From contig JACPSU010000103.1 in the NCBI GenBank assembly GCA_016193105.1, positions 1 to 39,895 on the forward strand: 39,895 nucleotides of DNA, written 5' to 3'. This document shows positions 13,150 through 27,917 of the stretch, in pieces (the stretch's first letter is position 1; every line of letters begins with the position of its first letter). The notes below the pieces were generated by a model that ran no database searches, had not been told where the DNA came from, and was given only the letters and a program-made list of their open reading frames with translations. A program made the position numbers and the translations under genes. Source of the DNA: Deltaproteobacteria bacterium. Its GTDB lineage: Bacteria; Bdellovibrionota; JACOXK01; 2-02-FULL-40-11.

Positions 13150-14523
13150 ATGTACAAAAATTTTAATCATGCACATTTTGTAGGGATTGGGGGCATTGGG
13201 ATGAGTGGGATTGCCGAGGTGCTTTTAAATCTTGGCTATAAAGTGAGCGGTTCAGATCTTTCAGCGACAGAAATTACAAAACATCTTAAAAGTTTGGGAG
13301 CCACCATCTATGTGGGGCACAAGGCCAGTCATATTAAAAAACCAGATGTCGTTGTGATCTCTTCTGCTGTATCCAAAACAAATCCCGAAGTTTTAAAAGC
13401 AAAAAAACTTAAAATCCCTGTCATCCCGAGAGCCGAGATGCTGGCTGAACTCATGCGGATGAAATATGGGATTGCTATTGCTGGAACTCATGGAAAAACA
13501 ACGACAACCTCTGTGGCAGGGACGCTGCTAGCCAGCTGTGGAATTGATCCAACCGTGGTGATTGGGGGAAGGCTCAATCGCTGGGGCACGAATGCAAAAT
13601 TGGGGCAAGGGCCTTTTTTAGTCGCTGAGGCAGATGAAAGCGATGGCTCTTTTAATTTACTCACTCCTACAATTGCAGTCGTCACTAATATCGACGCAGA
13701 TCATTTAGATTATTATAAAAATTTTAATGCGATTAAAGATGCGTTTACCACCTTTTTAAATCGTCTCCCTTTTTATGGCGTGGGGATTGTCTGTGGAGAT
13801 GATAAACCTATTCTTTCGATTTTACCTCGAGTCAATAAACGGATTGTGACCTATGGGATCTCTCAAAAATGTGATTTCCAGGCCAGGCATATTGTGCTTC
13901 AAGGCATTGTCAGTTCTTTTGATCTCTATTTTAAGGGAAAAAAGTTAGGGCATTTTTTGATTAAAGCTCCAGGGATCCACAATGTGAAGAATGCGTTGGC
14001 TTGCATTATTGTGGGGCTGGAGCTCAATCTCCCATTACCTAAGATTAAAAAAGGACTTCTGAGTTATACCGGTGTTCAGCGGCGCTTTCACATTCGAGGA
14101 GAAGTGGATGGGATTACTGTTATGGATGATTATGGGCATCATCCCACAGAAATTAAAGTAACGCTTGAGGCTTGCAAGAAGGTATGGCCCAAAAGGCGCC
14201 TAGTGGTGATGTTTCAACCTCATCGCTATACCCGAACCCGAGATCTTATGAAGGAGTTTTCAGGGGCTTTTCAAAAGGCGGAACTTTTGCTATTAACAGA
14301 AATCTACCCCGCAGGAGAAAAACCCATTCTTGGGATTACCTCTGAAAAGTTATATAAGATGATTCAAAAAAAACATAAGCATGTCACGCTCATCAATGGC
14401 CGCAGAGTTCTATGGCATGAGGTTGAAAAAGTTGCGAGACGCGGAGATGTGGTTTTAATGCTAGGAGCAGGGGATGTGTGGAAAAGTGGAGTTGAGTTTT
14501 TGGAAATGGCAAGAAAATCATGA
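13150..14523 (+). CDS. murC: UDP-N-acetylmuramate--L-alanine ligase
   Basis: HFVGIGGIGMSGIAEVL N-terminus, AGTHGKTTTT P-loop, DDYGHHPTEI motif. Confidence 0.94.
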   Translation: MYKNFNHAHFVGIGGIGMSGIAEVLLNLGYKVSGSDLSATEITKHLKSLGATIYVGHKASHIKKPDVVVISSAVSKTNPEVLKAKKLKIPVIPRAEMLAELMRMKYGIAIAGTHGKTTTTSVAGTLLASCGIDPTVVIGGRLNRWGTNAKLGQGPFLVAEADESDGSFNLLTPTIAVVTNIDADHLDYYKNFNAIKDAFTTFLNRLPFYGVGIVCGDDKPILSILPRVNKRIVTYGISQKCDFQARHIVLQGIVSSFDLYFKGKKLGHFLIKAPGIHNVKNALACIIVGLELNLPLPKIKKGLLSYTGVQRRFHIRGEVDGITVMDDYGHHPTEIKVTLEACKKVWPKRRLVVMFQPHRYTRTRDLMKEFSGAFQKAELLLLTEIYPAGEKPILGITSEKLYKMIQKKHKHVTLINGRRVLWHEVEKVARRGDVVLMLGAGDVWKSGVEFLEMARKS

Positions 14524-18725: not shown

Positions 18726-19160
18726 TTAGCGTTTATTTAGGATGGCTGTGAGGACGTAAGTAAAAGCAGAGATATTGACATATTCCTCATAATCTAGCGT
18801 CCCATTGGGTTTTTTAATAAAATGGAAAGAATATACATTTTGATTTTCCTGGGAATGAATGAATAATTCATTTTCAGAAATGGTGCCGGCTTCTATTCCG
18901 TCTTTATTATAGAGTTTTCCATTAGAAATTTTAAATGATTCTGGATCTTGGGTAATTTCAAGCCATTCGCATTGAGCACCCCCCTTGATCAGATTTAGAT
19001 TTATCTCTGTTTGCTCAAATTGATAGTAAACCAATTCGCAAGGCTTTATGGATCCTGCTCTTTTGTCCTGTAGATGTCCGGCTCCTCGCCACGCTCCTTG
19101 AAATGAAGCGAATGCCGTTGAGCCCAGCAATAGACAGATGAAGCATAGAATCTTTCGCAT
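18726..19160 (-). CDS. small exported protein, unknown function
   Basis: 144-aa ORF with signal peptide MRKILCFICLLLGSTAFA. I recognise no family motif. Convergent with ftsZ, 3-nt gap. Confidence 0.55.
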   Translation of the reverse strand: MRKILCFICLLLGSTAFASFQGAWRGAGHLQDKRAGSIKPCELVYYQFEQTEINLNLIKGGAQCEWLEITQDPESFKISNGKLYNKDGIEAGTISENELFIHSQENQNVYSFHFIKKPNGTLDYEEYVNISAFTYVLTAILNKR

Positions 19161-19167
19161 AAGAAAT

Positions 19168-19617
19168 TTATTGTACGCGGAAGGTGCCTATTTTGAACGT
19201 TTCTCCATTGGGAAGTTTCAAGTAGAGAAGTCCAGAGATCACTTGATCGGTGATATGTGTGGCCTTAAGAGTATATGTATCTCGATCAATACGAGTGACT
19301 GGATCTAAATAGGACAGGAGTAAATAGCCTGAATCTGTGCTCGTAGGCCAGTAGTCAATATCTAGAAATTCTGAAGGATTAAATATTCCATTGCCGACCT
19401 TCACTCCATAAATTGTAACCATGCCTGTAAGAGCGTGGCTTTCATCATTGGTGAAGTTTAATGTAATTTGTTTATAGCCATTGGCCCCTTCATCGGTTGT
19501 CAAAAATCCATTCCAGGCTTTAGAGATCAATCTTTGATGAAGTCCGGTCGGCACCTGTGTGGCAAAGGAACTCACTGAAATTAAAAAAAGTGCGGTGAAA
19601 AATAAGACCTTTTTCAT
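19168..19617 (-). CDS. small exported protein, unknown function
   Basis: ATG at 19617 is preceded by GGAGGG. Signal peptide MKKVLFFTALFLISVSSFA. The composition looks beta-rich. The longer 19674 start in the ORF track lacks an SD and would bury the signal peptide. Confidence 0.55.
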   Translation of the reverse strand: MKKVLFFTALFLISVSSFATQVPTGLHQRLISKAWNGFLTTDEGANGYKQITLNFTNDESHALTGMVTIYGVKVGNGIFNPSEFLDIDYWPTSTDSGYLLLSYLDPVTRIDRDTYTLKATHITDQVISGLLYLKLPNGETFKIGTFRVQ

Positions 19618-19646
19618 AACGATACCCTCCCTTATTATTAAAATGA

Positions 19647-22131
<2,485 letters not shown>

Positions 22132-22167: not shown

Positions 22168-22802
22168 ATGTCAATGATTCAATTAAAAACATATATTTTT
22201 TTAGATTCACTGCAACCCCAACTTGCTACTTTTGTGGGCACAACCGCCAATGGATTTCTCCCTTCTCCTTATGATGCCTCTTTATTTGTAGAAATTGCTC
22301 CTGGGATTGCCATTAATCGAGTGCTAGATTCAGCGCTGAAAGCCACAAAGGTTCGTCCGGCCTATCAAATTGTGGAGCGATCGTTTGGAATGTTAGAAGT
22401 GCACCATCCGATCCGGATCAAGGCGAAGTCAAACAAGCAGGGCTTGCTGTGCTCAAAGGTTTGGAGAGCACAGAAGAAAAAAGACAAAAACCAAAAATTG
22501 CGACCAACCAAGTCATTCGCTCGATCGAAGCCGATCAAGCCACCATTATTAATCGAAGAAGACAGGGCTCGATGGTGCTTCCCGGCCAATCTTTATTTAT
22601 TTTGGAAACCCATCCTGCTTCTTATATTGCGTTTGCGGCCAATGAAGCCGAAAAAGCCGCACGCATTCATTTAATTGAAATGATTCCCTTCGGAGCTTTT
22701 GGAAGATTGTATTTAAGTGGGTCGGAGTCAGAGATTGATTCTGCCCGGGATGCCGCGATACAGGCATTGGAGTCTGTAAGCGGAGTGGAAAGTAAAGACT
22801 AA
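22168..22802 (+). pseudogene. tandem BMC-domain shell protein (BMC-T-like) interrupted by a frameshift near 22405-22420
   Basis: Frame 1 (22168->) gives a good first BMC domain up to ..[12 protein letters not shown] and then basic junk. Frame 3 is open from 22317 and reads ..[19 protein letters not shown].. followed by a full second BMC domain ([50 protein letters not shown]) to the stop at 22802. Confidence 0.7.
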
Positions 22803-22812
22803 GGAGGTCACT

Positions 22813-23136
22813 ATGTCAGATGCATTAGGTCTATTAGAAACAAAAGGCTTTGCAGCCATGGTTGAAGCTGCAGATGCTATGGTCAAAGCTGCCAAAGTAG
22901 AATTGGTTGGCTATGAAAAAATTGGTGCAGGTCTTGTCACCGCCATTGTTCGCGGGGATGTGGCTGCAGTGAAAGCTGCAACCGAAGCCGGTGCCAGAAG
23001 CGCAGAAAAAGTTGGAGAACTTGTGGCTGTTCATGTCATTCCTCGTCCACATACGAATCTTGAATCTTCTCTCCCTTTGGGACGTGGACCAGAAACAGAA
23101 GCTCCAGCTCGTCGTACCAAAGAAGCTAGAGCATAA
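22813..23136 (+). CDS. BMC-H shell hexamer protein (PduA/EutM/CcmK family) with a charged C-terminal tail
   Basis: [61 protein letters not shown] is the canonical BMC domain. AAGGAGG lies 7 nt upstream of the ATG. Confidence 0.92.
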
Positions 23137-23156
23137 CTCGCGGAGTTTAATCTTTT

Positions 23157-23450
23157 ATGTTTGTTGGTCGTGTCGTAGGGACAGTTGTCTCTACACAAAA
23201 AGATCCAGCTCTTTTGTCCACTAAACTTTTGGTGGTAGAGCAGACCGATATGCGCGGTTCGCCTAAAGGCGCTCATCTCGTAGCCGTAGATTCTGTGGGG
23301 GCTGGTGTTGGTGAGCTCGTACTGTATGCGTCTGGAAGTTCTGCGCGCCAAACCGAAATCACTCAGAATAAACCGGTCGATGCCGTCATCATGGGGATTA
23401 TTGATACCATCACGGTCAAAGGCGAAACCGTCTTTACCAAAGAGAAGTGA
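23157..23450 (+). CDS. BMC-P vertex pentamer protein (EutN/CcmL family), paralog 1
   Basis: MFVGRVVGTVVSTQKDPALLSTKLLVVEQ...AVIMGIIDTI is typical of EutN/CcmL. Confidence 0.88.
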   Translation: MFVGRVVGTVVSTQKDPALLSTKLLVVEQTDMRGSPKGAHLVAVDSVGAGVGELVLYASGSSARQTEITQNKPVDAVIMGIIDTITVKGETVFTKEK

Positions 23451-24868
23451 TGAACCAAGATCAAATCTCTCATGTGGTTGAAAAAGTACTTGAGCGTCTG
23501 AAAACCACAGAAGCTTGGTCTCCAAAAGAAGACACGGTTATTTCTCCTCTCAAATTTATTTCTAAAAGTGGTCTTTTTGATTCTGTAGAAGAAGCTGTTC
23601 AAGCTGCCATTGAGGCGCAACGAGAACTCGTTCGTCTTTCTTTAGAGAAAAGAAAAGAGTTAATTGAAAAAATTCGCGAGGCCTGTCGCGCGGAAGCTAA
23701 AAATTTAGCTGAGATGGCGGTCAAAGAAACGGGCCTGGGACGGGTCGAAGATAAAATCCAAAAAAATCTTTTGGTGATCAATAAAACCCCAGGGGTGGAA
23801 GCGGTAGAACCTTGTGTGTTTACTGGAGATCATGGCCTCACTCTGGTCGAACGTGCGCCCTATGGTGTGATTGGAGCGATTACCCCCTGTACCAATCCCA
23901 CAGAAACGATTATTTGCAATAGCATTGGAATGATTGCCGCCGGAAATAGCGTGGTCTTTAATGCGCACCCCTTGGCCAAAAATGTGTGTGCCAAAATTGT
24001 TGATATTATTAATCGAGCCATTGTCGATAACGGCGGACCCCATAACGTGCTCTCTTCGATTTATAATCCGTCGATTGCAACTGCTCAAGAGCTCATGAAA
24101 CACAAAAAAATTAGACTTTTGGTTGTGACCGGAGGGCCAGATGTGGTCAAAGCGGCGATGAATTCTGGAAAAAAAGTGATTGCGGCAGGACCTGGAAATC
24201 CTCCTGTGGTAGTGGATGAAACAGCAAATATTGAACAAGCGGCACGAGATATTGTGCGGGGTGCCAGCCTCGATAACAACATTGTTTGCATTGCAGAAAA
24301 AGAAATTATTTGTGTGGACTCTGTGGCAGACGCTTTAAAAGAAGCGATGAAAAAACATGGAGTCTATGAAGTTAATCCCTATCAATTAAAACAGCTTGAG
24401 AAAGTCATTTTAAAAGAAACGACTCCCAACAAGGCCTTTATTGGAAAAAATGCGAGTGTAATTTTAAAAGAAATTGGAGTAACAGTTGGCGATGACATCC
24501 GTCTTGTTTTGGCTGAAACCCCTGCCGATCATTTGTTTGTAACGCGAGAACTTTTAATGCCTGTGCTTCCTTTGGTTCGGGTGAAAGATGTGGATGAAGC
24601 TATTGAACTTGCTAAAGAAGTAGAGCATGGATTTGGTCACACCGCTGTGATGCATTCTAAAAATATTGATCACCTTCATAAAATGGCCAAGAGAGTTCAA
24701 ACGGCTATTTTTGTGAAAAATGGCCCCTCTTTTTCAGGCCTTGGGCTTGAAGGTGAAGGATATACCTCTTTTACAATTGCCTCCCCAACAGGTGAAGGAC
24801 TCACCTCTGCGAAAAATTTTACAAAAGAATTGCGGTGTGTCCTTAAAGACAGCTTCCGCATAATATGA
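23450..24868 (+). CDS. CoA-acylating aldehyde dehydrogenase (EutE/PduP type) with an N-terminal encapsulation-peptide-like extension
   Basis: AAGPGNPPVVVDETANI and catalytic DNNIVCIAEKE motifs. About 40 aa of N-terminal extension contains the amphipathic helix DQISHVVEKVLERLK. The ATG at 23450 overlaps the upstream TGA (TGATG); GTG 23447 is an alternative start. Confidence 0.9.
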   Translation: MNQDQISHVVEKVLERLKTTEAWSPKEDTVISPLKFISKSGLFDSVEEAVQAAIEAQRELVRLSLEKRKELIEKIREACRAEAKNLAEMAVKETGLGRVEDKIQKNLLVINKTPGVEAVEPCVFTGDHGLTLVERAPYGVIGAITPCTNPTETIICNSIGMIAAGNSVVFNAHPLAKNVCAKIVDIINRAIVDNGGPHNVLSSIYNPSIATAQELMKHKKIRLLVVTGGPDVVKAAMNSGKKVIAAGPGNPPVVVDETANIEQAARDIVRGASLDNNIVCIAEKEIICVDSVADALKEAMKKHGVYEVNPYQLKQLEKVILKETTPNKAFIGKNASVILKEIGVTVGDDIRLVLAETPADHLFVTRELLMPVLPLVRVKDVDEAIELAKEVEHGFGHTAVMHSKNIDHLHKMAKRVQTAIFVKNGPSFSGLGLEGEGYTSFTIASPTGEGLTSAKNFTKELRCVLKDSFRII

Positions 24869-24873
24869 TGGGT

Positions 24874-25010
24874 CTGTTGAAAAAGTTAAAGCTGTTCAAA
24901 AAGGCCCAGATACTAGGCGCCCAAGGAGTGACGACTGAGGCGTACTTAATCGTACGTCGAAGGAGGCACGACGAGGGTAACGACGGAGATGGGACTTTTT
25001 CAACAGCTTT
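24874..25010 (+). promoter_or_regulatory. GC-rich structured intergenic element bounded by a 13-bp perfect inverted repeat; candidate cis-regulatory or processing RNA within the BMC operon
   Basis: CTGTTGAAAAAGT (24874-24886) pairs with ACTTTTTCAACAG (24994-25006). A second left-arm copy, AAAGCTGTTCAAAAAGG, sits at 24888-24904. The core carries three ACGAC-GAGG motifs and two AAGGAG. The right arm ends at the start codon of the next gene. Confidence 0.5.
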
Positions 25011-25565
25011 ATGATGAAACCAGCAATTGGACTTATAGAACTTAGCAGTATTGCGCGTGGGTTTTTGGCGCAAGATGCGATGATTAAAAAAGCTTCCGTG
25101 GAGCTTTTGATGTCTGAAACCACCTCTCCTGGGAAATATTTGGTTTTGGTCAGTGGCGATGTGGCTTCGGTTCAAGAGGCTACACAGGCGGGCATTCAAA
25201 TAGCCGAAAGTTTTCTCGTAGATTCTTTATTTATTCCCAATGTGCATGAACAAGTTGTCCCTGCAATTAAAAAGCACTTTCAAAAAACAAAATTAGATTC
25301 TGTGGGAGTTGTAGAAACGTTGTCTGTAGCTTCAGCGATTGTTTCAGCCGATCAAGCCTTAAAAACGGCTCATGTGAGTTTGGTTGAAATGAGATTGGGG
25401 CAAGGGTTGGGGGGAAAAGGATATTTTGTTTTAAGTGGAGCTTTAAGTGAAGTCGAAGCCGCTGTAAGCCAGGCAGTTAAAGTTTTAGAAGGATCTAATA
25501 TGTATTTACGAAGTGAGTTGATTGCCCGTCCTCATGAGGATTTTTCTGTGAGAGTATCGCCATGA
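25011..25565 (+). CDS. BMC-T shell protein, PduT-like tandem BMC domains (cysteine-free)
   Basis: 184 aa, collinear by eye with Salmonella PduT (AIGLIELSSIA..DAM.K.A.V.LL.S.T..PGK...VGVVET.SVA..I.AAD.A.K...V.LV......GGK.Y....G..S.V..AV......IPRPHE). Position 39 is Ser where PduT has the Fe-S ligand Cys38. Confidence 0.85.
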   Translation: MMKPAIGLIELSSIARGFLAQDAMIKKASVELLMSETTSPGKYLVLVSGDVASVQEATQAGIQIAESFLVDSLFIPNVHEQVVPAIKKHFQKTKLDSVGVVETLSVASAIVSADQALKTAHVSLVEMRLGQGLGGKGYFVLSGALSEVEAAVSQAVKVLEGSNMYLRSELIARPHEDFSVRVSP

Positions 25566-25825
25566 ATTTAGGAAAAGTGTTGGGAGTGGTAGTAGCCACT
25601 CAAAAAGATTCTTCTTTAAAGGCTTCAGCGCTCTATGTTTTAGAGCCTCAAGACGAACATCAAAAGCCAACGGGAGATTTATTGATTGCTGCAGATACGG
25701 TGGGTTCTCGCCCGGGAGATCAAGTGATTTGGGTTTCTTCGCGAGAAGCAGCGTTAGCGATGCCAGAAACTTTTACCCCCGTCGACGCCGCCATTATTGG
25801 AATCGTGGATTCGGTGTCTGTATGA
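25562..25825 (+). CDS. BMC-P vertex protein (EutN/CcmL family), paralog 2
   Basis: MNLGKVLGVVVATQKDSSLKASALYVLEP...AAIIGIVDSV. ATGA overlap with the upstream BMC-T. Confidence 0.88.
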   Translation: MNLGKVLGVVVATQKDSSLKASALYVLEPQDEHQKPTGDLLIAADTVGSRPGDQVIWVSSREAALAMPETFTPVDAAIIGIVDSVSV

Positions 25826-26088
25826 TCTTAGCCAAAGTCTTAGGCCCTGTCGTGGCCACACAAAAACACGAAGCACTCAAGGGTCGTACGCTTTATGTGG
25901 TCCAACCTATCGATAAAAATAAAAATGCTAAAGGAAATACGTTCTTAGCTCTAGATTCTGTTCAAGCTCGGGTGGGAGATCTTGTTCTCATCAATCGTGA
26001 AGGAGGCTCTTGCCGCCAAATCCTTCAAAATGATCTTGCTCCTATCAATGCCTTAATCTGTGGAATTGTTGATCAGCTAGATATCTAA
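25822..26088 (+). CDS. BMC-P vertex protein (EutN/CcmL family), paralog 3
   Basis: MILAKVLGPVVATQKHEALKGRTLYVVQP...ALICGIVDQL. ATG 25822 overlaps the TGA of paralog 2 (ATGA). The 25729 start in the ORF track is an out-of-context extension. Confidence 0.88.
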   Translation: MILAKVLGPVVATQKHEALKGRTLYVVQPIDKNKNAKGNTFLALDSVQARVGDLVLINREGGSCRQILQNDLAPINALICGIVDQLDI

Positions 26089-27917
26089 GCCCCTGACATT
26101 CCAGTTCCTGAACTAAAAATTCTTTCACATGGATCTTGGAGCGCTTTTTCAATGTCTTCCCGAGAGATCAAGGAAAGATGTCCTTTTTCTATCATTAAAC
26201 GTTGGGTTACCTCGATAAATTTTACAACCTGCTCAGAAGTGACATCTGCTGAACGTGCTCCAGTTGCTTCTAACGAATGAAGAATTCTTTCTGCGAGGGC
26301 TATTCGTATTTCCTTGGGGCTTCTTCCCTCCTTGCGAAGTGAACGTGTGATGTTTTCTTGGTGTTCGATCACAGAAAGTATTCTTAGGAGTGTGTCTGTG
26401 AGAGGAGAGCGAGCATGAAGTTTGACGCGGTTTTCAGCAAGAAATTCAGTTATCCCCCGTGTAAAAACTTTTTCTTGGCCTAGGGCTGGAGCATGGTGGG
26501 CAAGGGTTGCTTGGAGGGCATGGGCTTGAAAACTTTCTGTGTCCTGAGCTGAAATGATATGGGTTCGCTTAAGTTCTTCTCGGATGGAAGCAAAGGTAAT
26601 ATCTCTTCCTTCCAATTGCATTCTTGCAATGGCCATTAAGACGACCTCAGCACGAAATCGGTAGGTGGCTTGCACGAGATCCTGAATTGTTTGGATCTGG
26701 GGTATCGTTCTTAAAATCTCCAAGATATGGCGAATTTTATCTAAGGATAAAACAGGATCGTCTTGTGTTGTGAAAGGACTTTCAGGGTTGAGCAAAACCT
26801 GACGAATAGCTTCTTCTAAACTCATTGAAGTCGTATCCAATCCTCTTTTTTGAACAATTTCATAGGCTGAAAAAACAACATCCACTTGTTCAAAATCACT
26901 TAAAAAAGGAGGAGGACTGACAAGGAGAATTCGGAGGTCTTCTGTAGAAAGAGTCGTTTGTTCTGAGAAAATAAAGTGTTTTTGACTCAGCCAGTCTAAA
27001 ATAGTTTTGGGAGTGGCTACTTGTTGGTGTCTTAAAAAAACTCTTTTTGCAACCTGTGCATAGGTACGTTCAAGACGATGGACGATCTCTTTTTCGTTGA
27101 GAGGTTCCTCTGGATGTTGTTGACGCCATTCGTCTCGGAGATTTAAAATTTGGACGATTTTAAAAAGGGTAATATAAATATAAGAAGAGCCCCACAAGTG
27201 TCCATGAATTCTGTTTATATAATGGCGAGTTTTTCTGGCTTCAGCCCAGAGTGCATCTCTCTCAAGAAGAAAAGCTTCCGAACGAAGAACAGCTCGTACC
27301 TGTTCATGAGCATTAGAAACGTCACTGGAGGAGCTTTCAATGATGTCAGGATCGGCTGCGATAGCTCCACGGATGGAGTCCCCATACGTTTGTCTTCGTT
27401 GTTCGATAAGATCTCGAGAAATTCTTTCTATATGGGAATCTGAAAGTCTTTCTTCATCCGCCTCAATCATAAGGCCACGATGCTTAAGATAGTGTTTGAT
27501 ATGGATAGGGGTCATTTCTTGAGAGGTGGCTATTAAAAAAGTAAGCGCTTCTTTAACATAAGATCGAATAAGTTCGTCTTCAATGTCCCTTTGAAAGCTG
27601 AGAGAAGACTCCTGAGGGTGAGCTACTGCAGCAGAACTTCGATACCTGGCTTTTAGAACGCTCTCAACAAACTCGGCAGAGATCACCAGCTTTAAGCCTT
27701 TGGGGAGCTTACGCCAGACCCGACCTGCTGCTGTTTGAAAACCGAGGCGAGGTTCATGCCAGCTTTGTTGATTTCGAACGATGTCTAAAGAATAAAGAAC
27801 TTCAAAGACTTTGTCTTCAAGGGGGAGGTTTTTAGGAGCTGTCGTTTGAGAATAAATAAAATTGTTATTGATTAGAAAACATAGAAAGATTAAAAAAATC
27901 AGATAGATGCGCTTCAT
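26085..27917 (-). CDS. large exported protein of unknown function (610 aa, composition looks helical)
   Basis: Long uninterrupted ORF with signal peptide MKRIYLIFLIFLCFLINNNFIYSQ. I recognise no family motif. Its stop overlaps the stop of the last BMC-P gene by 4 nt (convergent). Confidence 0.7.
   Translation of the reverse strand: MKRIYLIFLIFLCFLINNNFIYSQTTAPKNLPLEDKVFEVLYSLDIVRNQQSWHEPRLGFQTAAGRVWRKLPKGLKLVISAEFVESVLKARYRSSAAVAHPQESSLSFQRDIEDELIRSYVKEALTFLIATSQEMTPIHIKHYLKHRGLMIEADEERLSDSHIERISRDLIEQRRQTYGDSIRGAIAADPDIIESSSSDVSNAHEQVRAVLRSEAFLLERDALWAEARKTRHYINRIHGHLWGSSYIYITLFKIVQILNLRDEWRQQHPEEPLNEKEIVHRLERTYAQVAKRVFLRHQQVATPKTILDWLSQKHFIFSEQTTLSTEDLRILLVSPPPFLSDFEQVDVVFSAYEIVQKRGLDTTSMSLEEAIRQVLLNPESPFTTQDDPVLSLDKIRHILEILRTIPQIQTIQDLVQATYRFRAEVVLMAIARMQLEGRDITFASIREELKRTHIISAQDTESFQAHALQATLAHHAPALGQEKVFTRGITEFLAENRVKLHARSPLTDTLLRILSVIEHQENITRSLRKEGRSPKEIRIALAERILHSLEATGARSADVTSEQVVKFIEVTQRLMIEKGHLSLISREDIEKALQDPCERIFSSGTGMSGA

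Follow-up and report, generated by a model that had tools for sequence, protein, structure and literature searches.

The locus at positions 22168-26088 (+ strand) of contig JACPSU010000103.1 encodes a bacterial microcompartment (BMC), and very probably it is a member of the published HO family of BMCs with the type II layout, carried by an uncultured Bdellovibrionota-like bacterium known as a metagenome-assembled genome (MAG). We use 'the window' for the whole stretch of DNA that was analysed (39,895 nucleotides). The open reading frame (ORF) listing together with profile searches places seven co-directional genes in the locus, in the order BMC-Tdp (frameshifted), BMC-H, BMC-P, aldehyde dehydrogenase (AldDH), BMC-Ts, BMC-P and BMC-P, which bears out an earlier note on this DNA that had described seven co-directional, mostly overlapping genes. 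Four of the junctions overlap by 4 nt, P1/AldDH through GTGA and Ts/P2, P2/P3 and AldDH/small ORF all through ATGA (P1 to P3 being the three BMC-P genes in order; the small ORF is described below). Judged from these predicted products, the operon is a complete HO shell kit comprising one BMC-H, one cysteine-less BMC-Ts, three different BMC-P and one frameshifted Tdp. The features are as follows, with fetched loci of other genomes given L numbers here and below.

22168-22802 (+), BMC-Tdp, frameshifted, in two reading frames (22168-22674 and 22449-22802)
22406-22415 (+), 5-bp tandem duplication ATCCG ATCCG, from DNA alignment with L002 and L001
22813-23136 (+), BMC-H, the sole hexamer gene, Hoch_5815 orthologue (PF00936, E 8.5e-30)
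23157-23450 (+), BMC-P no. 1 (P1), pentamer, Hoch_5814 orthologue (PF03319, E 1e-31)
23447-24868 (+), AldDH, CoA-acylating, EutE/PduP family, 473 aa (NF011927, 685 bits)
23456-23503 (+), putative N-terminal encapsulation peptide of the AldDH, QDQISHVVEKVLERLK, with a conserved amphipathic pattern
24871-25009 (no strand), palindromic insertion resembling a miniature inverted-repeat transposable element (MITE), absent from relatives, with a hairpin fold
25011-25565 (+), BMC-Ts, single-layer tandem-BMC trimer with PduT-like fold, HO-T1 counterpart (two PF00936 domains)
25562-25825 (+), BMC-P no. 2 (P2) (PF03319, E 8e-25)
25822-26088 (+), BMC-P no. 3 (P3) (PF03319, E 1e-26)

The HO type comprises 41 loci in the catalogue of Sutter et al. 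2021 (PMC8217296), where it is defined by a single BMC-H, a BMC-P triplet (inside the main operon in type II) and one BMC-Ts. Its Tdps fall into a main-locus CsoS1D-like clade and a satellite CcmP clade, its AldDH in every case carries an encapsulation peptide (EP) at the N-terminus, and the type I main locus holds shell proteins and AldDH and nothing else (PMC8217296). The window locus has a single BMC-H, three distinct BMC-P in the main operon as in type II, a Tdp in the main locus that belongs to the CsoS1D-containing clade (though the gene is frameshifted here), one BMC-Ts of the HO-T1 group with neither the Fe-S pore Cys nor an accompanying PduS, and, as its one main-locus enzyme, an EP-bearing AldDH.

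A search with the repaired Tdp led to A3B70_07165 (80% identity) of Deltaproteobacteria bacterium RIFCSPHIGHO2_02_FULL_40_11. Three proteins of this genome are labelled HO (main) in the catalogue tree, namely A3B70_07165 (Tdp_wheat_S1Dlike), A3B70_07175 (the P1 orthologue, BMC-P paleGreen) and A3B70_07185 (Ts_auburn_HO). In the sister locus L082 (MGRI01000113) all seven genes of the window recur in unchanged order, with identities of 80% for Tdp, 82% for H, 86% for P1, 77% for AldDH, 60% for Ts, 60% for P2 and 70% for P3, and all pairs are reciprocal best matches, one-to-one. The RIFCSPHIGHO2_02_FULL_40_11 locus also shares ligA upstream and, downstream, a homologue of the secreted protein orf271, a cytidylyltransferase and an RsmE-type methyltransferase. 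It differs in having an intact Tdp, no insertion between AldDH and BMC-Ts, no orf610 and an upstream methyltransferase instead of a thioesterase.

The earlier note had read the locus as a possible minimal or novel metabolosome type. One half of that interpretation stands, in that the AldDH is the sole enzyme and the canonical core partners are missing from locus and window; the other half, the new type, falls with the one-to-one orthologues in a locus labelled HO in 2021. Clustering with a defined locus type was the outcome that the note itself had named as speaking against novelty, and such clustering is what we find. We therefore consider it very improbable that this is a minimal metabolosome of a new type, separate from all those in the catalogue. 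The lack of a signature enzyme, phosphotransacylase and alcohol dehydrogenase, and a lineage that is low-GC and Bdellovibrionota-like, not Myxococcota, might be taken as signs of one, but the catalogue already places the 80%-identical Tdp and its neighbours in the HO type, the layout is that of the described type II HO arrangement, and the closest structural relatives of the shell proteins are Haliangium proteins. The locus is thus a new example of a known puzzle, its substrate and cofactor question having already been recognised for the HO type.

The individual shell proteins point the same way. The repaired Tdp matches the CcmP model NF053796 end-to-end (253.8 bits, positions 3-206 of 213) and its top match among solved structures is HO-5816 (E 3.9e-83), consistent with a CcmP/CsoS1D-like double-BMC protein, a double-stacking tandem trimer orthologous to HO-T2/Hoch_5816. 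The BMC-H, which is the only single-domain PF00936 gene of the locus and of the whole window, has HO-5815 as its best natural PDB match (E 1.5e-42), carries KAAK and PRPH-type motifs, and is 100% identical to its L002 counterpart at a dS of 0.25. For P1 the top PDB match is the BMC-P of 5v74 (E 7.6e-29), the BMC-P of the Haliangium ochraceum shell being Hoch_5814. The three BMC-P, all inside the operon, are 40-43% identical among themselves, with P2 at 40% to both P1 and P3.

The BMC-Ts, like its orthologues, has Ser in place of the Fe-S Cys of the PduT pore; in HO-like loci this position is Ser or Thr. Across the fetched loci the pore Cys of Ts occurs only where a PduS-like gene is present, and no PduS-like gene came up in a Pfam scan of all ORFs of 100 aa or more in the window (39.9 kb). 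In two of the loci of more distant AldDHs a PduS-like flavoprotein gene lies between AldDH and BMC-Ts (L010, 5467-6966; L014, 11460-12836), where the window has its insertion. In these two loci the Ts has the pore Cys, which fits a redox pair of the PduS/PduT type, missing from HO-type loci.

The AldDH scores 685 bits against NF011927, the model of the EutE/PduP subfamily (curated cut-off 403), and its top PDB matches are the BMC-associated AldDHs 5jfl, 6gvs and 4c3s. The alignment to the PduP structure 5jfl takes in the motif DNNIVCIAEKE with its catalytic Cys. The amphipathic pattern of the N-terminus is kept across 15 aligned AldDHs, with a maximum hydrophobic moment of 0.66 over residues 5-18, and is followed by a poorly conserved linker of variable length up to about residue 40; the Pfam and PDB matches start only at residue 40-45. 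As the earlier note had claimed, no other cargo enzyme turned up in profile scans of the locus, the AldDH being the only enzyme there.

The Haliangium ochraceum HO BMC (Hoch_5816 to Hoch_5812, PDB 5V74) has the same core order, Tdp-H-P-AldDH-Ts. It also has a single BMC-H, a Ts without the pore Cys and the AldDH as sole main-locus enzyme, and it supplies the best solved structures for Tdp, H and P1. It differs in being type I, with the other two BMC-P and a second Tdp on satellites, whereas the window has three BMC-P in one operon. Many type I genomes, furthermore, have a satellite class II aldolase, and the window Ts is more PduT-like by score.

Other catalogued types share only part of this layout. 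In MIC7 (Latescibacteria, Eisenbacteria) the main locus likewise holds shell proteins, a BMC-P triplet among them, and an EP-bearing AldDH as its only enzyme, but there the BMC-H is of two kinds and the Tdp lies on a satellite, whereas the window has one BMC-H and a Tdp that heads the operon. SPU loci have a related shell kit (BMC-P triplet, Tdp and Ts), the catalogue places HO AldDHs closest to those of SPU5 and SPU7 (PMC8217296), and many of the 80 nearest AldDH loci in our AldDH-based genome scan are SPU-like, with DeoC and RpiB. These two defining SPU enzymes, DeoC (PF01791) and RpiB (PF02502), are missing from the locus and from the whole window. The canonical PDU and EUT metabolosomes differ in having a signature enzyme, a phosphotransacylase, an alcohol dehydrogenase, a regulator and a transporter, and the canonical core of signature enzyme, phosphotransacylase and alcohol dehydrogenase does not accompany the shell genes here. 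The Pfam scan found no aldolase, DeoC, PduL/Pta, alcohol dehydrogenase, glycyl-radical enzyme or B12 enzyme in the window, and no regulator or transporter adjoining the locus. What the earlier note had said of the locus, that it lacks a signature enzyme, PduL/Pta, an alcohol dehydrogenase, a regulator and a transporter, thus holds, for the three enzymes over the whole window as well.

Several observations weigh against the HO assignment or against the function that it would imply. The BMC-Ts matches PduT-like proteins in the PDB (E 1e-42) better than the Haliangium T1 protein (5dih, E 1.4e-30). In a neighbour-joining tree without bootstrap support the AldDHs of the lineage form one cargo-less clade that is not sister to the AldDHs of myxobacterial type I HO loci; given the lack of bootstrap support we draw no inference on sister types from this tree. 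The complete Tdp tree of the catalogue holds one Tdp only for each of three related MAGs. Near the cassette, aldolase, DeoC, PduL and alcohol dehydrogenase all go unseen in ten loci of the lineage. Finally, the Tdp frameshift and the AldDH/Ts insertion could mean that the operon is not fully functional in this genome. Even so, we regard an HO locus of type II layout as much the best account of the data.

As an HO compartment, the system would work along lines drawn from established BMC biology. The shell proteins would self-assemble into an icosahedral shell of ~40 nm, the encapsulation peptide would direct the AldDH to the lumen, and the enzyme would there convert a small volatile or toxic aldehyde, with CoA and NAD+, to acyl-CoA and NADH. 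More tentatively, the aldehyde may come from an unlinked enzyme, for which a sugar-phosphate aldolase seems the likeliest candidate; a class II aldolase (PF00596) could give lactaldehyde or glycolaldehyde, and DeoC (PF01791) acetaldehyde. Unlinked enzymes might recycle the cofactors, or these might be exchanged by passage through the shell.

The earlier note had offered, as an alternative, that the locus is the shell half of a split system. A split system with a satellite aldolase in many genomes is the published working view for HO loci; the catalogue proposes a sugar-phosphate aldolase as the unlinked aldehyde source and calls the function enigmatic (PMC8217296). The class II aldolase PF00596 occurs in 29 of the 41 HO loci, on a satellite in 24 of 30 type I genomes and in the main locus in 5 of 11 of type II (PMC8217296). 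We found no PF00596 protein in the window, nor within 8-10 kb of the cassette in the ten related loci. Since none of these ten has a linked aldolase, the aldolase step of a split system takes its support solely from what the catalogue states for other HO genomes.

The same ten loci bear on a different reading, in which the cassette is the whole system, namely an AldDH-only compartment that scavenges a diffusible cytosolic aldehyde, to capture or detoxify it, with no co-encapsulated signature enzyme. NAD+/NADH and CoA/acyl-CoA would then be exchanged with the cytosol, for example via a gated Tdp pore, and not recycled inside. Ten loci, in two unrelated contexts, keep the cassette with no further enzyme nearby (8-10 kb), purifying selection on it is strong, and Axen et al. 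2014, who counted the Haliangium locus as one of the 'metabolosomes with an incomplete core', suggested that MIC-type BMCs including that of Haliangium may skip internal cofactor recycling. Furthermore, the single Tdp per related MAG implies that the lineage may lack even a satellite Tdp, which leaves room for the cassette as whole system. However, a lack of linkage does not mean that the genome lacks such an enzyme, and the class II aldolase is frequent both on type I satellites and in type II main loci (24/30 and 5/11, as above). The sole Tdp of the locus is frameshifted, which would remove the proposed cofactor gate, and the passage of cofactors is itself hypothetical. On balance we think this reading unlikely, although it is the strongest of the alternatives. 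If it were true, the locus would depart from the metabolosome paradigm and yet work, and it would offer a compact handle on what the HO shell does natively.

Among BMC shells that of HO serves as the chief model for structural work and engineering, and its native function and cargo-loading signals were still described as unknown in 2025; a paper of that year still gives the HO BMC 'a yet unknown function' and describes its native encapsulation targets as unknown. The present locus does not solve the HO function and is ordinary as a discovery by itself. It does add that a compact cassette of shell and one AldDH recurs among low-GC Bdellovibrionota-like bacteria, and that the N-terminal targeting helix of this enzyme is clearly conserved. 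The small single-operon versions could suit expression of a native HO-type compartment together with its native cargo, as well as a hunt through complete genomes of the lineage for the missing aldehyde-producing partner.

The distribution of the cassette was examined from the AldDH and the Tdp. The nearest AldDHs are those of L002 (95%), L001 (82%), L006 (77%), and L003 and L004 (both 70%). L001, L003 and L004 have the same cassette in the same ftsZ-ligA-thioesterase setting, L002 and L006 have the same arrangement up to a contig end that cuts part-way through the AldDH, and in L081-83 the cassette again lies in the ligA context. L084 (Oligoflexia), L085 and L086 (the last from Bdellovibrionales) carry an identical seven-gene cassette, with Tdp identities of 69-73%, but its surroundings are others, with Flp/Tad pilus genes alongside. 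The cassette recurs in at least eight related genomes and in two different genomic contexts. No further BMC-associated enzyme lies within 8-10 kb in any of the ten loci of the lineage. When ORFs were clustered and annotated with Pfam over 84 sequences (83 fetched loci and the window), DeoC, RpiB, TIM, class II aldolase, PduS and PduL were found around the more distant AldDHs of SPU-like and other types, and none of them in the clade of the window.

The dN/dS values against the closest relative are 0.031 for Tdp, 0.00 for H, 0.057 for P1 and 0.056 for AldDH, at dS of 0.25-0.60; for comparison, the housekeeping genes ftsZ and ligA give 0.024 and 0.066. From these low values together with the recurrence it follows that the seven-gene cassette is a conserved, selected unit and no remnant.

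In L084-86, where the surroundings of the cassette differ, the adjacency to Flp/Tad genes is probably shared synteny. The cassette is divergent to the Flp/Tad operon in L085 (2727-9803) and L086 (3187-7889), both of which have the Flp pilin and the RcpA secretin; the L085 operon also has a CpaF-type ATPase and the L086 one a prepilin peptidase. In L084 an Flp-like gene lies ~9 kb upstream of the cassette.

The frameshift that the earlier note had mentioned is real in the assembled sequence and lies in the Tdp, where it is caused by a perfect 5-bp tandem repeat (ATCCG at 22406-22410 and again at 22411-22415). DNA alignment shows that the 5-nt insertion is found in the window only and that L002 and L001, the two closest relatives, are without the duplication; the sister-MAG Tdp orthologue with 98% identity has no ATCCG duplication. 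Against L002 both halves of the gene are under purifying selection and, as both evolved in this way, the frameshift may be a recent lesion, a population variant (polymorphic in the source) or an assembly error. Programmed frameshifting was considered and rejected on account of the tandem duplication, its absence from relatives and the absence of a slippery heptamer. Minimal Haliangium shells of H, T1 and P, without T2 and T3, still assemble at ~40 nm (PMC11924220); by analogy, loss of the Tdp need not abolish the compartment, and the frameshift need not prevent shell formation.

The second feature peculiar to this genome is the palindromic, MITE-like insertion of ~140 bp (24871-25009), which sits exactly at the AldDH/BMC-Ts junction. 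It ends in 13-bp inverted repeats (24874-24886 and 24994-25006), is flanked by a 7-bp direct repeat TATGATG resembling a target-site duplication (24864-24870 and 25010-25016), and folds as a long hairpin (-53.6 kcal/mol, z = -4.7). L001, L003, L004 and L082 lack the insertion, their AldDH and Ts genes adjoining directly or overlapping, and no further copy was found in the window or in 86 fetched loci. Owing to the TATGATG duplication the AldDH retains its stop codon and the Ts regains a start codon, while the former Ts start now opens a 49-codon ORF (24865-25014) that ends in the ATGA overlap with Ts. The product of this ORF has an amphipathic N-terminus and was considered as a small EP-bearing cargo; this was rejected, the ORF being a product of an insertion that is absent from all relatives. 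A second mobile element at a gene junction of the cassette is seen in L084 (an Oligoflexia MAG), where an IS200/IS605-type Y1 transposase gene (13384-14019) lies between BMC-Ts and the second BMC-P, the rest of the cassette being identical.

These two genome-specific lesions, one frameshifting the Tdp and the other breaking the AldDH/Ts coupling, raise the question of whether the operon is decaying in this genome and has ceased to yield a working compartment. None of the other six ORFs is broken, however, and the insertion spared the AldDH stop and restored the Ts start as described. In addition, Haliangium shells form without double-stacked trimers, and the frameshift may stem from the assembly or vary within the population. 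The dN/dS of 0.00-0.06 against the closest relative, which includes both Tdp halves, means that any inactivation must be very recent; on this ground we rejected decay of the locus except as very recent damage, and consider even that quite improbable.

Upstream of the operon lie, in turn, the dcw cluster (mraW to ftsZ), ligA and a 4HBT thioesterase. Downstream are two secreted proteins, one an orphan and the other DUF6588-like, together with a cytidylyltransferase, RsmE, a GGDEF response regulator, a peptide-binding protein and cell-wall enzymes. The flanks given in the earlier note, ligA and a thioesterase on one side and a signal-peptide orphan (26085-27917, -) on the other, are therefore as described.

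The thioesterase gene (21694-22131, -) is divergent to the operon on the opposite strand, 36 bp upstream, and is kept there in the window, L001, L002, L003, L004 and L006, so that its 4HBT acyl-CoA thioesterase might be thought of as the CoA recycler that hydrolyses the AldDH's acyl-CoA product. A methyltransferase, however, takes its place in L081-83, the sister locus of the catalogue, and the gene is absent near the cassette in L084-86 and from more distant loci. Nor does the protein have an EP-like terminal extension, the Pfam match taking up residues 12-132 of 145. With conservation in part of the lineage only and no EP, we rejected the thioesterase as CoA recycler and give the idea very little credence.

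The signal-peptide orphan, orf610 (26085-27917, -, 610 aa), the third lesion peculiar to this genome, lies between the cassette and orf271 and is an insertion relative to L001, L003, L004 and L082. It has no Pfam or NCBIfam match, and its sole match in 5.8 billion proteins is itself (HYY62_05835). The secreted protein orf271 was considered as a conserved accessory of the cassette and rejected, the 280- and 287-aa downstream proteins of L084 and L085 being unrelated to it (hhalign probability 1%). A hint to the substrate was sought among riboswitches and other RNAs, and the window gave no Rfam match; promoter and terminator scans gave counts not over the shuffled expectation. Between ftsZ and ligA, two genes on the - strand encode small secreted proteins of 144 aa (18726-19160) and 168 aa (19168-19674), neither with a family match. 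The 144-aa protein is without a detectable homologue in the fetched loci; the 168-aa protein is conserved in L002 and L081/L082.

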